Positions 19,216 through 26,489 of a DNA stretch of 64,000 bases are shown here, in pieces. Within the stretch, counting starts at the first letter, position 1; every line of letters starts with the position of its first letter. A model generated the notes under the pieces. The model was given only the letters and a program-made list of their open reading frames with translations. It ran no database searches and had not been told where the DNA came from. The translations under genes and the position numbers were made by a program. The stretch is from Escherichia coli (GTDB lineage: Bacteria; Pseudomonadota; Gammaproteobacteria; Enterobacterales; Enterobacteriaceae), in NCBI RefSeq assembly GCF_041248615.1, contig NZ_CP158425.1, one strand, 5' to 3'.

Positions 19216-19230
19216 GTTGGAGTCATTACC

Positions 19231-20737
19231 CTCCCCTCAAAGCCATATCACGTACGTTAATCCTGACTTCATTAAAATCAGTGGTTTCACTGAGGAAGAA
19301 CTATTAGGCCAGCCTCACAACATCGTAAGACACCCAGATATGCCGCCTGCTGCATTTGAGCATATGTGGAGTACATTAAAATCTGGCCGCTCATGGATGG
19401 GGCTAGTAAAAAATCGCTGTAAAAATGGCGACCACTATTGGGTAAGTGCTTATGTAACGCCAATAGCTAAGAATGGTTCGATTGTTGAATACCAGTCTGT
19501 AAGGACCAAGCCTGAACCTGAGCAGGTTTTGGCTGCGGAAAAATTATATGCTCAATTGAGAAGCGGGAAGGCCGCGAGGCCGAAATTGGCTGCTAGCTTT
19601 TCCGTGAAAATACTCTTGCTCATATGGGGTAGTATTATATCAAGCGCAATGGCTGCCGGCATGCTTACTGATACATCAATAAGCAGCTTATTGTTAGCCA
19701 CTTTAATGTCAGGAAGCTTAAGCTCTGTTAGTGTTTTGGCTATTCTCTCTCCTCTTGGAAGACTGGTTGAAAGAGCCAGGAATATTTCCAATAACCCATT
19801 AAGTCAATCCCTCTACACTGGGCGCACCGATGAGTTTGGCCAAATAGAGTTTGCTTTACGAATGATGCAAGCTGAAACAGGCGCCATAGTAGGTCGCATA
19901 GGTGATGCATCAAATCGGCTTAGCGAACACACCCGAGGCCTACTAAAGGATATTGAGTCAAGCAATGTACTTACAGTTGAGCAGCAGGCAGAGACAGATC
20001 AAATAGCAACGGCAGTAAACCAAATGGTGGCAAGCATTCAAGAGGTTGCGAGCAATGCACAGCATGCTGCAGATGCGGCCGGAAGAGCAGACACTGAGAC
20101 GGCATCTGGCCAGCGTCTGGTAGCCCACACAAGCCAGTCAATCACTGCCCTTGAAGGTGAAATTAGGCAAGCCACTCAGGTTATTCATGAGCTTGAAGGT
20201 CAAAGTAACGAGATATCAAAAGTTCTTGACGTTATACGAGGGATCGCCGAGCAAACGAATTTGTTGGCACTCAACGCAGCAATTGAGGCCGCGCGTGCTG
20301 GTGAGCAGGGGCGTGGTTTTGCTGTTGTCGCCGATGAGGTTCGCAGTCTTGCTGCTCGCACACAGCAATCGACAACGGATATTCAAAGCATGATCAGCGC
20401 TCTACAAGAGCGAGCGCAATCCGCTGTTACAGTCATGGAGCAAAGTAGTCGGCAAGCGCACACGAGTGTAGCTCACGCAGAGGAAGCAGCTACAGCTCTT
20501 GATGGAATTGGCCAACGCGTTAACGAAATTACCGACATGAACGCGCAAATAGCGACTGCGGTCGAGCAGCAGGGAGCAGTAAGTGAAGACATAAACCGCA
20601 GTATTATCAATATACGCGATGCTGCTGATACCAATGTACAGACCGGGCAGAATAATTTGCAAAGTGCGAAATCTGTCGCTCAGTTAACTAGCGCTCTGAG
20701 CGAACTGGCAAAACAGTTTTGGGAAAAACGAGGATAA
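19231..20737 (+). pseudogene. aer: aerotaxis-receptor-like PAS/methyl-accepting chemotaxis protein, 5'-truncated by IS1
   Basis: [16 protein letters not shown] segment and MCP signalling domain resemble Aer; first ~25 codons missing, frame starts at the IS1 boundary. Confidence 0.7.
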
Positions 20738-20870: not shown

Positions 20871-21671
20871 TCACGAGAACACCGTTAGCTTAGCGTACGA
20901 TTTTTTCCGAATTCTGCGGTTCCCCCTTAAATACCTTCCGATGGACTTAAACCTTGCCGCTGCAACTTCCTCGAAATAGGGCAGCATTCTTTTGCTGGCA
21001 TTAGCGATTGCCTGCGTTCGTTGTGTGATGATTTTGCTGATGGCTGTGCTGATCTGCCCTTCTTTTAAGGCCGCTTCTCTGATTTGTTCAATGCGGGTAT
21101 CTGAAATACCAGAGGACAGAGCATTCTGAACTGATCCAATTGCCAAGGAAGTGACCGCCTGCTGCTCTTGAGAGGGCACTAACGCAACGCTAATGCCCGT
21201 CACAGGGTTTTCACGGTCATCTGTACCTAATTGCTCAATCGCGAGGTCACGGAGCCCCTGAGCATCACTCACGAGGGCTGTAAGCGATGCCTGTAGGCTA
21301 TTCACTTCTTCCTGAGCTTGTCTGAGTTCAGCATCCCGGATTACCTTATGGTCGGGTTCAAATACAAAACTGGACAGAAAATCCTTAACCAGGAAGCGAT
21401 GCTCTCGCATTTCTTTGCCACGTTCCCTACGGTAGCCACTGCTGTCTTCAGTGACAATAGCAACAGTCTGACCGTAAACGCGGGGATGGGCGCGTAGAAT
21501 TACTGTATGCAGCTTATCTTCAACGTAACGCAAAGACGTAATGAGCAGTGTATCCCCTGCCACAATACCCTCTTCAGGGATGCTGTCAGTGGACGTCCAG
21601 TACTGACCCGCCAGCAAAGAATGAAATCGCTCTAAACGGTCAATGCTATTTTTGCTGACCAGGTCACCCAT
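20871..21671 (-). CDS. hypothetical protein (266 aa)
   Basis: ORF with GGAAGGA upstream of the ATG; no recognisable motif. Confidence 0.5.
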   Translation of the reverse strand: MGDLVSKNSIDRLERFHSLLAGQYWTSTDSIPEEGIVAGDTLLITSLRYVEDKLHTVILRAHPRVYGQTVAIVTEDSSGYRRERGKEMREHRFLVKDFLSSFVFEPDHKVIRDAELRQAQEEVNSLQASLTALVSDAQGLRDLAIEQLGTDDRENPVTGISVALVPSQEQQAVTSLAIGSVQNALSSGISDTRIEQIREAALKEGQISTAISKIITQRTQAIANASKRMLPYFEEVAAARFKSIGRYLRGNRRIRKKSYAKLTVFS

Positions 21672-22427: not shown

Positions 22428-23045
22428 TCAGGGGGAAATCAGATTGTTGTCGACCCAGTACTTGTGCAAACCTACCACCCAATTCCTGGAAATGGACGAA
22501 AGTTCATGCGCCAGTTCACGACAGCATTCAGGCGTAAAAATACGTATGGGTCCTGAAGTACCGATATCAACAGACATGATAAACTCCAGAATGTTGCCAT
22601 GGCATAGGTTGTTTCTCAGCCTGACAATTTCTGCTTCAGGTGTTCTCCCGGCTGCTACCTTAACCAACATATCCTGCTCGGCTGGAAATGAAAGTAATTC
22701 TACCGGCACCCCTTCCTGCTTGGCCTTTCTCAGTAAGGCATTACTCATTACGGAGATACCCTCCAAGTCCACCAGCTCAGGAGCTGCATGCTGATCGTTA
22801 ACTGTTGGTTTCAGCATCAGCGACTTCAACGTAACCATGAGTGATGTTTCAATCCCGTTCAGGAAGCTCGTACAGGCCGGTATCCATAGTTCGTGATGCA
22901 ACGCCTCGGTTGCTTGTTTAAAGAACCAGTCAATCACGGGGACAGTGTGATAATCATAATAGTGATTTATCTCGCTGAATCTTGACATATAAGCATCGTA
23001 CTCAGCCTGGTCTTCAGGAGATAAAAAATTTGGTGGGAGGGGCAT
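22428..23045 (-). CDS. hypothetical protein with HEPN-like Rx4HG motif (205 aa)
   Basis: RNNLCHG motif near C-terminus; otherwise unassigned. Confidence 0.45.
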   Translation of the reverse strand: MPLPPNFLSPEDQAEYDAYMSRFSEINHYYDYHTVPVIDWFFKQATEALHHELWIPACTSFLNGIETSLMVTLKSLMLKPTVNDQHAAPELVDLEGISVMSNALLRKAKQEGVPVELLSFPAEQDMLVKVAAGRTPEAEIVRLRNNLCHGNILEFIMSVDIGTSGPIRIFTPECCRELAHELSSISRNWVVGLHKYWVDNNLISP

Positions 23046-23199
23046 CAGAATCCTTTCATCCTAGCTTGTATACCTTCTTCGTAGGCCAGCTCGCCATTAT
23101 CGGTAAAAGATGGTTTTTGGTGTTTGTGACAAAGCTTAATTTTTCGTCAGGCTCGATAGCGTTACCGGAGAGATTTGATCTTTTCTCTGTAACTCGCAA

Positions 23200-23219
23200 T
23201 ACTGTTTATACATACAGTA
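23200..23219 (+). promoter_or_regulatory. LexA (SOS) box upstream of the umuD-like gene
   Basis: TACTGTTTATACATACAGTA = CTGT-N8-ACAG consensus, 20 bp upstream of the ATG. Confidence 0.75.
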
Positions 23220-23238
23220 TGAGAATTCGAGTGTAGCT

Positions 23239-23673
23239 ATGTCTGTTATCCTTGAGCACATTAGCAACAAGCCTTACGAAATGGCACCTTTTTTCAGTGA
23301 TTTACTGAGCTGTGGAGTGATGAGTCCGTGCGCCGGGCATGAAGATAATGAATTAAATTTGCATGAATATGTAGTCCGTAACCGCCCCTCAACCTTCTTT
23401 GTCAGGGCGGCGGGCCTCAGTATGATCAATGCCGGTATCAATGATGGCGCTATTCTGGTTGTGGATCGGTCTTTAACGGCACGACACGGCTCTATCGTCG
23501 TTGCGCTGGTGGATGGAGAGTTCACGGTAAAGATCTTACACACGTATCCTGAGCTGCTTTTGATGCCTTCTAATCCAGCCTATAAGCCGATACGTGTAAA
23601 TCCCGAATCCCTTGAGATATGGGGCGTCGTCACCTTTGCACTGAATCAGTTTAGCCATGTACATGCACGTTGA
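23239..23673 (+). CDS. umuD: UmuD/MucA-like translesion-synthesis accessory protein (S24 peptidase)
   Basis: 144 aa; Cys-Gly cleavage-site region, Ser in AGLSM and Lys in GEFTVK as in UmuD. Confidence 0.85.
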   Translation: MSVILEHISNKPYEMAPFFSDLLSCGVMSPCAGHEDNELNLHEYVVRNRPSTFFVRAAGLSMINAGINDGAILVVDRSLTARHGSIVVALVDGEFTVKILHTYPELLLMPSNPAYKPIRVNPESLEIWGVVTFALNQFSHVHAR

Positions 23674-24916
23674 TATTAACGGGGCCTATGCGGCATTTGA
23701 GTGTGCGATGGATCCCAAGCTGGCAAAAAAGCCGCTCATCATAGCCAGCAATAACGATTCGTCCGTCATTGCAATGAATAAACTGGCTAAAAGCGTTGGT
23801 ATTAAGCGTGGGACCCCAATTTTTAAGTGCAGGGATTTGATTCAGCAACACCAGATCGAAGTCCGGAGCTCTAACTTTACTTTGTATGAAGACTACTCAA
23901 ATCGCTTCCATGAAACGCTGGAAAGCTTCGCGCCTCAATCGAGTCGATATAGCATAGATGAAAATTTCATGTTATTGAAAAACATGAACAAGATAATAGA
24001 TTATGAAGATTACGGCCGGTTGATCAGAAGTACACTTCTTCATAATCTGTCCCTTACCTGTGGTGTGGGGTGTTCAAGCACCAAAACCCTGGCTAAATTA
24101 TGCACCTATGCGAGCAAACGATGGGCAGCTACAGGCGGGGTTGTAGTTTTGACTGATCAGGCCAGGATCAGGAAGCTCCTGGGCCTTATCAGTACCAGAG
24201 AAATATGGGGTATTGGTCAAAAGATCAGTGAACGCCTGTCGGCTTTCGGGATCATCACTGCCGGTGATTTTTATAATAGCGACGTTCGCTTTTTACGTAA
24301 AAGCTTTGGCGTTGAAATCGAGCGTACCTGGCGGGAACTGCATGGCGAACCATGTTTCCGGCTGCATGAATCCCCTCCTGTCCGGCAACAGATTATCGTT
24401 TCCAGAAGTTTTGGTCAGCGCCTTAATGAGATAGGCAAGCTACATGAGGCAGTTTCATTTTTTACCGCCCGGGCGGCAGAGCAGCTGCGCAAGGATGGCT
24501 CGTGGACCCGTCAAATCACAGTCTTCATTCAGAGCAGCAATTATGCGCAAGGTGAAAACCGCTACAGCAATTGTGGTATCGAGCCGCTTACCGCTACACA
24601 GGACACCCGCGATCTGGTTGATGCAGCCATGACCATCCTGAACCGCATTTACAAACCCGGGATAGCGTATGCGAAAGCTGGGGTAATGCTCTCCGCTATG
24701 ACTGACGGCACAGAGCAACTCAGCCTGTTTGATGAGCGCCCGGCCAGGCCTGGCAGTCAGGCACTGATGAAAGTTATGGACCGGTTCAATAAAGAAAAGC
24801 GCGGAGCTCTGTTTTTGCTGGGGGAAGGCATTCAACAGGATTTTCGTATGAAACAGGCCATGCTATCACCGAGATATACGACCCGCTGGGATGAATTACT
24901 CGTTGTAAAAGCGTAG
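23657..24916 (+). CDS. umuC: UmuC/MucB-like Y-family DNA polymerase
   Basis: 419 aa; N-terminal D..NGAYAA, SIDENF, and C-terminal LSPRYTTRWDELLVVKA resemble UmuC. Confidence 0.9.
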   Translation: MYMHVDINGAYAAFECAMDPKLAKKPLIIASNNDSSVIAMNKLAKSVGIKRGTPIFKCRDLIQQHQIEVRSSNFTLYEDYSNRFHETLESFAPQSSRYSIDENFMLLKNMNKIIDYEDYGRLIRSTLLHNLSLTCGVGCSSTKTLAKLCTYASKRWAATGGVVVLTDQARIRKLLGLISTREIWGIGQKISERLSAFGIITAGDFYNSDVRFLRKSFGVEIERTWRELHGEPCFRLHESPPVRQQIIVSRSFGQRLNEIGKLHEAVSFFTARAAEQLRKDGSWTRQITVFIQSSNYAQGENRYSNCGIEPLTATQDTRDLVDAAMTILNRIYKPGIAYAKAGVMLSAMTDGTEQLSLFDERPARPGSQALMKVMDRFNKEKRGALFLLGEGIQQDFRMKQAMLSPRYTTRWDELLVVKA

Positions 24917-24961
24917 CGGCCATGACCGGCATGGCCGTACTCATCAAAAGTGAAAGTAACT

Positions 24962-25771
24962 TTAGGCCCCGCGAGCTTTTTCGATTGCGCCCTGCAAAGT
25001 TGCTGCGTCCATAGCCCCGGGGATAAATGTGGTAGTCGCCGCATTCGGCTTTTTCATATTCATAATGATGAAGCCGGGTGTGCCGGTGATCCCAAGCGCT
25101 TCGCCCAGCTGCATGTTGCCGGAGATCACGTTTTCATATCGGTTTTTTTCCCTGTCAGAAAACGTGCTGTTAAACCCTGACTTATCCACCACAGTATTAA
25201 AGTCGCTGAGTTCGAATTTGCGTTGAGAGGTCATGAAGGTATGAGCCACAGCCATCAGGTTGTTGTGGTATTTACGATAGGCTTCAGCACCGAAATTCTG
25301 ATAGACGTGCAGACCCGTAGCGGCCCCCATGGCAGATACAGGTTTTGAACCGGCAAAAATCGGGAATTCTTTAAAGAAGAATTTTACATCTTTGCTCTGA
25401 TTCATTACCGATTCAACAACAGGTGTAACCCGCATGCAGTAAATACACTGATAGTCGAAGAACTCGATTACCGCGACGTCGGCGTCATCCGGGCCGATGT
25501 TTGGCGTCTCCTTGGTATCCAGCAGAGCTGGCGCATATGGAATTATTCGTTCCACTGAGGCACTTACGTTCTGATTTTCCAGCGCCTTACCTGCTTCCAC
25601 TAAATAATGGGGATTTTTTACCAGGTAAGTAGCGGCAATTTTGCCAATTTCTTCCTCACTGAGCACCTTCGGTTTAAAATAAGTTGCCGCGATTAACGCC
25701 GAGGCAGCGGTAGCAATTACCGCAGAAATTAAAATCGTGGCCATCGGTTTTAAATAAAATTCTTTAGACAT
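24962..25771 (-). CDS. DsbA-family thiol:disulfide oxidoreductase-like protein
   Basis: 269 aa with CIYC (CxxC) active-site motif and N-terminal membrane anchor. Confidence 0.65.
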   Translation of the reverse strand: MSKEFYLKPMATILISAVIATAASALIAATYFKPKVLSEEEIGKIAATYLVKNPHYLVEAGKALENQNVSASVERIIPYAPALLDTKETPNIGPDDADVAVIEFFDYQCIYCMRVTPVVESVMNQSKDVKFFFKEFPIFAGSKPVSAMGAATGLHVYQNFGAEAYRKYHNNLMAVAHTFMTSQRKFELSDFNTVVDKSGFNSTFSDREKNRYENVISGNMQLGEALGITGTPGFIIMNMKKPNAATTTFIPGAMDAATLQGAIEKARGA

Positions 25772-25877: not shown

Positions 25878-26489
25878 ATGATTAGGCAGGGCTTTATACT
25901 CACAACCGCAATGCTTTTGAGTGGTTGTGGATATCATTTCGCAAACCAGGTAGATGCGTACGATCTAATGCCTCGTCCTGTTACAAATAAAAGGTTTCAG
26001 ATAGTCCCTCCGGACGAAAGTATTCAGTCCAGAATGTTTTCAGGCCGTTTTGCTGATGGATTAGCAAAAAAAGGAGTCATTATTTCCACTCACCAGCCAG
26101 ATTATGTGCTCAGGTTCCGAATGAGCAGCTCACAGGAGAACATGCAGTATAGCGAGCAGCTTCTTACTGGGGTGACAGGCTACGTTGTAGATAAAAAGAC
26201 AACGAGAACTGACAAGCATGGCGAATCGCATACTGACTATGACTACAGGCCGGTCGATGGGGTAATAGGCACTGAGACGATGTCGCAGATGCACTATATG
26301 CGACAGCTGGATGTCGAGGTATACCCGTCAGCGAAAGGAGCAAAGCAGGTTCTGAAAGTGAGTATGCAAAGCAATGCACCTGTGCCGTCAGACAGCATTG
26401 CTTATTCAGCAATGATCGACGCCTTTACTGATAAATTTGATGCGCCGCTGCGTTCCGGAAATTATGTTGCAGTGATCCCCTGGAACTGA
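25878..26489 (+). CDS. hypothetical lipoprotein
   Basis: Lipobox LLSGC at residues 13-17. Confidence 0.5.
   Translation: MIRQGFILTTAMLLSGCGYHFANQVDAYDLMPRPVTNKRFQIVPPDESIQSRMFSGRFADGLAKKGVIISTHQPDYVLRFRMSSSQENMQYSEQLLTGVTGYVVDKKTTRTDKHGESHTDYDYRPVDGVIGTETMSQMHYMRQLDVEVYPSAKGAKQVLKVSMQSNAPVPSDSIAYSAMIDAFTDKFDAPLRSGNYVAVIPWN

Follow-up and report, generated by a model that had tools for sequence, protein, structure and literature searches.

The window that we analysed, by which we mean the whole stretch of 64,000 nucleotides (64 kb) of Escherichia coli DNA, carries on its + strand, within positions 23175-24937, a compact operon of two genes, umuD and umuC, preceded by a LexA operator (SOS box) and a putative promoter. 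The features of this locus are the following:

23175..23180, + strand: putative -35 hexamer TTGATC, as read from the sequence
23198..23203, + strand: putative -10 hexamer AATACT, as read from the sequence
23200-23219: LexA operator TACTGTTTATACATACAGTA
23239..23673, + strand: umuD, self-cleaving S24 peptidase subunit, 144 aa (Pfam Peptidase_S24, NCBIfam NF007621)
23311-23316, + strand: UmuD cleavage site Cys25-Gly26, aligned with C24-G25 of K-12 UmuD
23419-23421, + strand: UmuD Ser61, aligned with S60 of K-12 UmuD
23530-23532, + strand: UmuD Lys98, aligned with K97 of K-12 UmuD
23657..24916, + strand: umuC, catalytic subunit of a Y-family polymerase, 419 aa (Pfam IMS, IMS_C, DUF4113; NCBIfam NF002955)
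23672..23701, + strand: UmuC motif I, D6-I-N-G-A10-Y11-A-A-F14-E15, gapless alignment with DVNAFYASCE of UmuC
23957..23962, + strand: catalytic Asp101-Glu102 (SIDE motif), invariant in 8 orthologues
24716..24730, + strand: QLSLF, residues 354-358, putative beta-clamp-binding motif, aligned with QLNLF of K-12 UmuC
24917..24937, no strand assigned: G+C-rich hairpin (fold -18.8 kcal/mol, z -3.06), conceivably a shared terminator

The two genes overlap by 17 nt, as expected from the initial annotation, which had described a umuD-like gene overlapping a umuC-like gene. On inspection by eye, no Shine-Dalgarno-like sequence is found in the bases preceding the start of umuC. The operon is flanked upstream by a divergent gene for a hypothetical protein of 205 aa (22428-23045, - strand) and downstream by a convergent gene of the DsbA family (24962-25771, - strand); neither PADLOC nor Pfam returned anything for the product of this divergent gene, nor for three further open reading frames nearby. 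The hairpin sits in the gap where umuC and the DsbA-family gene converge. A T-tract is absent from its + strand and only weak on its - strand, and the terminator scan made no call there.

The products of umuD and umuC

The product of the first gene matches Pfam Peptidase_S24 (PF00717) with an E value of 2e-24 and scores 129.8 bits, for a cut-off of 110, with NCBIfam NF007621, the curated model of the autoproteolytic subunit of pol V. It is 47% identical to K-12 UmuD over its full length, its best match in the PDB is UmuD (8gmt_B, E 1.3e-31), and the full-length protein is conserved, including its N-terminal arm. The cleavage site and the Ser/Lys dyad, which had been announced as retained, are all present by alignment, and G26, S61 and K98 do not vary among 8 orthologues. 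With the S24 fold, the Ser/Lys dyad and a cleavage site of the form (Cys/Ala)-Gly, this protein has the marks of the UmuD / S24 LexA-like peptidases.

In the product of the second gene, PF00817 (IMS), PF11799 (IMS_C) and PF13438 (DUF4113) each exceed the gathering score, and the curated UmuC model NCBIfam NF002955 covers residues 1-418 with 464.7 bits for a cut-off of 431. The identity to K-12 UmuC is 47% over the full length. Residues D6, Y11, D101, E102, Q354, L357 and F358 are the same in all 8 orthologues compared; among the representatives of the family, D6 is found in all those aligned at that position (146/146) and D101/E102 in 149 of 150. As to QLSLF, we presume that it binds the beta clamp, a function that we carry over from E. 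coli UmuC. A sequence search for a solved structure of UmuC gave none, the best matches in the PDB being DinB, Dpo4 and pol iota; the AlphaFold model of the protein has a mean pLDDT of 91.7. A score above the model cut-off, the set of domains, the catalytic carboxylates and the steric gate in register and a QLxLF motif all point to a member of the UmuC subfamily.

A coupled substitution beside the steric gate

It had been proposed that the N-terminus of UmuC (D-I-N-G-A-Y-A-A-F) contains an inserted residue which could alter its activity. This insertion is ruled out: the alignments obtained with BLASTP and MAFFT against E. coli UmuC and six other orthologues are gapless, and what had been taken for an insertion was an error of alignment by eye, where there are substitutions instead. 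DINGAYAAFE pairs position by position with DVNAFYASCE of E. coli, with D6, N8, Y11 and E15 in register, so that the catalytic Asp6 and the steric gate Tyr11, both of which belong to motif I, occupy the same places as in E. coli UmuC. The residues A9, F10, S13 and C14 of E. coli are replaced here by G9, A10, A13 and F14 (A9G, F10A, S13A, C14F). The suggestion of an altered activity rested on the mistaken insertion; a rare substitution adjoining the steric gate, as read from the alignments, is nevertheless real.

All full-length proteins of the IncH clade (67-100% identity) have Ala10 and Phe14. For the family at large, we considered the 146 representatives aligned at positions 10 and 14, taking one per cluster at 50% identity. 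At position 10, 134 of them have Phe and 5 (about 3%) have Ala; at position 14, Cys is found in 135, and 5 have Phe, Met or Trp. Ala10 and a bulky residue 14 occur in one and the same set of five proteins, which means that the covariation is strict in this sample (Fisher p 1.9e-9). These five proteins have 31-39% mutual identity, and for each of them a sequence with Phe10/Cys14 or Met10/Cys14 is nearer than any other one with Ala10. Since their nearest relatives do not have Ala10, the comparison points to independent coupled changes in separate lineages as the origin of the combination of Ala10 with a bulky residue 14. Two closer homologues deviate from the covariation and have Ala10, Phe11 and Cys14.

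In the AlphaFold model, residues 8-11 form a loop and residues 12-18 a helix, an arrangement in which residues 10 and 14 could plausibly touch. The mutation F10L of E. coli UmuC has been reported to raise both fidelity and sugar discrimination (PMC3401427); as a change at this position alters the E. coli enzyme, a natural A10 variant could behave differently too. We put forward only tentatively, and with less belief than doubt, that the coupled repacking (Phe10 to Ala, Cys14 to Phe) loosens or tightens the steric gate, and that the fidelity or the ribonucleotide selectivity of the pol V of IncHI1 and IncHI2 resistance plasmids, which have spread worldwide, differs from that of the chromosomal one.

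The operator and the putative promoter

The operator TACTGTTTATACATACAGTA agrees with the 20-nt consensus TACTGTATATATATACAGTA at 18 of 20 positions, and contains the palindrome CTGT-N8-ACAG at 23202-23217. Taken alone, this 8-base core is not significant: it has 3 matches in the 64 kb for 0.65 expected, and 3 or more were obtained in 4 of 100 shuffles. The two remaining matches, at 26380 and 44025, fall within open reading frames, and their spacers are rich in G+C. Because the bare core fails to be significant, we applied the 20-mer consensus in its place. When up to 3 mismatches are allowed, the sole match in the window is the one at 23200-23219, with 2 mismatches, while 0 are expected. Hence the consensus LexA box which had been noticed upstream of the umuD-like gene is borne out; the gap between the end of the operator and the ATG of umuD (23239) is 19 nt. 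The repeat search missed the palindrome, whose arms are 6 nt long for a minimum length of 8.

The operator of umuDC in E. coli K-12, TACTGTATATAAAAACAGTA (read from the genome record), shows the same agreement with the consensus, 18 of 20 positions, and is separated from the ATG by the same 19 nt. We aligned the upstream regions of eight operons, namely the window's own and those of an IncHI2 variant, IncHI1, E. coli, IncN (mucAB), IncL/M, IncK and IncF, and found a LexA-type box at the equivalent position in all eight; in the IncK operon, it precedes a dinI-like first gene. The half-sites of the IncHI1 operator are CTGG...CCAG. In two distant loci of the IncH clade (L009 and L011, 67-72% UmuC identity), the box is kept, with TTGATC exactly 19 nt upstream of it, and in one relative (L010) the left half-site of the operator is degenerate.

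The hexamer TTGATC recurs unchanged before the umuDC operons of IncHI2, IncHI1 and E. coli, as well as in L009 and L011. The putative -10 hexamer AATACT follows it after 17 nt, its last four bases coinciding with the start of the LexA box, and it reads (A/G)ATACT among the relatives of the IncH clade. As the promoter scan made no call at the operator, where the pair of hexamers reaches 8/12, below the threshold of 9, it is from conservation only that we infer a sigma-70 promoter of the form TTGATC-17 nt-AATACT overlapping the operator. A CTGT-N8-ACAG palindrome with an A+T-rich spacer, near to the consensus and overlapping a putative promoter, has the marks of an operator of the LexA (SOS) regulon of Enterobacteriaceae.

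Selection and distribution among plasmids

Between the IncHI2 and the IncHI1 copies, pN/pS is 0.125 for umuC and 0.153 for umuD. These values are ratios of proportions, as the synonymous sites are saturated between the two (pS 0.69-0.77) and the Jukes-Cantor dS could not be computed for umuC. Since non-coding elements remain conserved despite this saturation, the conservation of the operator and of the -35 hexamer reads as a footprint of function. Purifying selection, together with an operator and a -35 hexamer conserved across the IncH clade, argues for a working operon, presumably repressed by LexA.

A stretch of 1.9 kb containing the operon matches 946 plasmid records, of which 513 reach an identity of 99% or higher; 900 of the 946 cover 80% or more of the operon stretch, and 935 of the 946 are conjugative. 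Hundreds of plasmids from Salmonella, E. coli, Enterobacter and Klebsiella, 210-300 kb in size, carry it with 100% identity. The annotation of pSTM6-275, a plasmid typed IncHI2A/MOBH/MPF_F, names the genes umuD and umuC, and their neighbours match those of the window, which from position 21528 onwards is colinear with the backbone of this plasmid at 99.98%. The existence of near-identical DNA in plasmids typed as IncHI2, with the same neighbours, indicates that the operon belongs to the IncHI2 backbone. The reading of the locus as a plasmid-borne umuDC-like translesion polymerase operon with a LexA box is therefore upheld, by the NCBIfam and Pfam models passed, by the 100% identity to conjugative IncHI2 plasmids and by the box that occupies the equivalent position before seven orthologous operons.

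IncHI2 plasmids are important vehicles of resistance genes, mcr and bla among them. Positions 1-21500 of the window form a resistance region, which holds strA/strB, aph(3')-Ia, a Tn3-family transposase, aac(3)-II, a beta-lactamase, IS1 and IS26.

Comparison with known pol V operons

The operon resembles the chromosomal umuDC of E. coli in the order of its two genes (umuD then umuC), in the agreement and position of its box, in its -35 hexamer TTGATC, and in the Cys-Gly cleavage site, the Ser/Lys dyad, D6, Y11, D101, E102 and the QLxLF motif. It differs from it in being plasmid-borne, in the overlap of the genes (17 nt here, 1 nt in E. coli), in the distance from the -35 hexamer to the box (19 nt here, 17 nt in E. 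coli), in a C-terminal tail of UmuD which is 5 residues longer here, and in the four residues of motif I given above.

The mucAB operon of IncN plasmids (pKM101/R46 type; pol RI) likewise encodes an orthologue of pol V on a plasmid, with 45-46% identity; its genes overlap too (13 nt in L004), and a LexA box lies immediately before them. However, MucA has an Ala-Gly cleavage site where a Cys-Gly site is found here, and MucB has Met10 instead of Ala10. With 45% identity, MucB is no closer than K-12 UmuC (47%), which means that the name mucAB, when given to the IncHI2 genes, is a label only.

Much closer is the umuDC operon of IncHI1 plasmids (R27/pHCM1-type), with identities of 84% for UmuC and 81% for UmuD; it shares with the operon of the window the divergent gene for a hypothetical protein of about 205 aa, the convergent DsbA-family gene, the A10/F14 motif and the layout of the promoter, and differs from it by the half-sites of its operator, which are CTGT...ACAG in the window. 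Finally, rumAB of the SXT/R391 integrative conjugative elements (pol V R391) is also a LexA-regulated pol V orthologue on a mobile element, with the difference that further repressors encoded by the element, SetR/CroS, belong to it.

The operon is an ordinary one, already named and annotated in hundreds of records, of the umuDC/mucAB type of pol V operon found in the backbone of IncHI2 multidrug-resistance plasmids. In the literature, mucAB of IncHI2 is named a mutagenesis induction system (PMC6206278) or listed among plasmid stabilisation genes (PMC4855149), umuC serves as a map landmark beside resistance regions in papers on IncHI2 plasmids (PMC9599605), and the IncHI genes are listed under ultraviolet light protection (bioRxiv 10.1101/334409). 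In the literature searched, we found such annotation-level mentions only, and no functional test of IncH umuDC/mucAB, including a Muc phenotype for IncHI2.

Proposed mode of action and alternatives

We think it very probable that the operon is a umuDC operon of the IncHI2 backbone which is controlled by LexA and acts as pol V does in E. coli. The LexA of the host would bind 23200-23219, and as this operator overlaps the -10 region of the putative sigma-70 promoter, the operon would stay off. After DNA damage, or in the presence of single-stranded DNA, RecA would become active, LexA would cleave itself and the operon would be transcribed. UmuD would then be cut on the RecA filament at Cys25-Gly26 by its own Ser61/Lys98 dyad, and UmuD'2, UmuC, RecA and ATP would together make an error-prone translesion polymerase, held on the beta clamp via QLSLF. 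We have counted against this account the 8/12 score of the hexamers, the degenerate half-site of L010, the presence of Ala10 beside the steric gate and the fact that no experiment on the operon was met with in the literature searched.

An intact operon under LexA control may all the same be of slight or no mutagenic effect in the plasmid and host where it naturally occurs, which we regard as a real possibility, if not the one that we would expect. Extra repression encoded by the plasmid, weak expression, poor processing of UmuD or a low activity of the variant are possible causes. It is reported that rumAB is a strong mutator if subcloned and is poorly mutagenic from native R391, owing to SetR/CroS (PMC8460599, PMC11602152); since some close relatives of pol V are thus poorly mutagenic in their native setting, an intact operon is no proof of a mutator phenotype. 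The weakness of the promoter hexamers, the start of umuC devoid of a Shine-Dalgarno-like sequence by eye, the A10 variant adjoining the steric gate and the fact that no Muc phenotype of IncHI2 was found in the literature searched go in the same direction. They have to be set against a strong purifying selection on both genes, the conservation of operator and -35 hexamer across a clade whose synonymous sites are saturated, and the retention of the operon in most of the matching records. Selection, conservation and retention argue that the product is used, not necessarily for mutagenesis. One may also imagine that the chief benefit for the plasmid, loosely termed plasmid stabilisation in IncHI2 papers, is damage tolerance or survival, for instance protection against UV or the restart of replication after the entry of single-stranded DNA in conjugation, or else a checkpoint of the UmuD2C type, rather than a supply of mutations. 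This we hold to be unlikely. The IncHI papers which speak of ultraviolet light protection or of plasmid stabilisation agree with it, though their statements are annotations; the conservation of full-length UmuD with its N-terminal arm agrees with it as well, and UmuD2C of E. coli has a separate role in a checkpoint and in cold sensitivity (PMC4045847). The sequence, however, does not separate such a role from mutagenic translesion synthesis, and the two are not exclusive.

The idea that the palindrome occurs by chance, or that the genes are decaying remnants, without any SOS-regulated function, deserves hardly any credit. It could draw on the frequency of the bare core in the window and in the shuffles, but it is contradicted by the full 20-mer, unique in the window and conserved in position across orthologous operons, by the intact reading frames with their low pN/pS, and by the catalytic residues, which are all retained.

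Significance

If the repacking of residues 10 and 14 does affect the steric gate, the mutation spectrum of the pol V of IncHI1 and IncHI2 plasmids would differ from that of chromosomal pol V. We consider that the coupled swap of Ala10 and a bulky residue 14 beside the steric gate is a point worth the attention of specialists, along with the functional role of a polymerase carried by so widespread a family of plasmids. The points of interest are whether the operon raises the mutation rate in a native IncH plasmid, and whether Ala10/Phe14 affects fidelity or sugar selection. Error-prone polymerases carried by mobile elements can accelerate the evolution of drug resistance, and such an acceleration has been demonstrated for antibiotic resistance with the Rum polymerase of R391 (PMC11602152).

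Residues of the UmuC active site

23684-23698, + strand: UmuC residues 10-14, compared across the family sample

Among 146 UmuC-family representatives, an Ala just before the steric gate (Tyr11 of the window UmuC) and a bulky residue (Phe, Met or Trp) four residues after that Ala occur strictly together, in five cases out of five in both directions. The five members which carry this pair (P0001, P0129, P0157, P0177 and P0200) belong to lineages that are not one another's nearest relatives in the sample. The exceptions to the pairing are two closer homologues, which read DINSAFVSCE and DINSAFASCE.

The LexA operator at related loci

The IncHI1 operator (L003 1040-1065, TACTGGTTAAATATCCAGTA) has the half-sites CTGG...CCAG, whereas its IncHI2 counterpart has CTGT...ACAG; LexA may bind the IncHI1 operator with lower affinity than the IncHI2 site. 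At L010, an IncH-clade locus with 71% UmuC identity, the operator keeps only its right half (GACCCTTATATATACAGTTA, at L010 105-128), other bases standing in place of the left CTGT. This sequence suggests either that LexA control was lost or that a recombination breakpoint lies upstream.

Genes and resistance region upstream of umuD

1-21500: multidrug-resistance region
19217-20737: PAS and methyl-accepting-chemotaxis-like ORF, left of 21528, where colinearity with the IncHI2A plasmid pSTM6-275 begins
22428-23045, - strand: divergently transcribed 205-aa ORF
L009 1763-2431: gene of an SOS response-associated peptidase (SRAP, PF02586)

The 205-aa divergent ORF, which is without a match in Pfam or PADLOC, is conserved beside umuD in IncHI1 and IncHI2 plasmids alike. 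At L009 (67% UmuC identity), the slot which this hypothetical gene holds in the window is occupied instead by the SRAP gene, immediately 5' of the LexA box and umuD. The multidrug-resistance region ends about 1.7 kb before the start of umuD, and it contains APH(3'')-Ib, APH(6), APH(3')-Ia, AAC(3)-II and a beta-lactamase, together with a Tn3-family transposase and resolvase, IS1 and IS26.

Downstream of umuC

24917-24937: G+C-rich hairpin (fold -18.8 kcal/mol, z -3.06)
24962-25771, - strand: DsbA-family gene, convergent with umuC (compare L002 2201-2501)
27422-28171: second thioredoxin-fold gene, by the annotation in pSTM6-275

The hairpin, which has no clear T-tract, lies within the 45-nt gap separating the stop codons of umuC and of the convergent DsbA-family gene, and may be a terminator shared by both. 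The window shares this gene order with plasmids of the IncHI1 and IncHI2 types. At the three IncH-clade loci that are more distant, between one and three small ORFs separate the two genes, and the DsbA-family gene is found about 0.8-1.2 kb 3' of umuC. In E. coli K-12, it is a convergent dsbB, rather than a DsbA-family gene, that comes after umuC. The presence of Dsb-type genes beside umuC both on the plasmid and in K-12 is probably a coincidence, because Dsb proteins serve the transfer apparatus.
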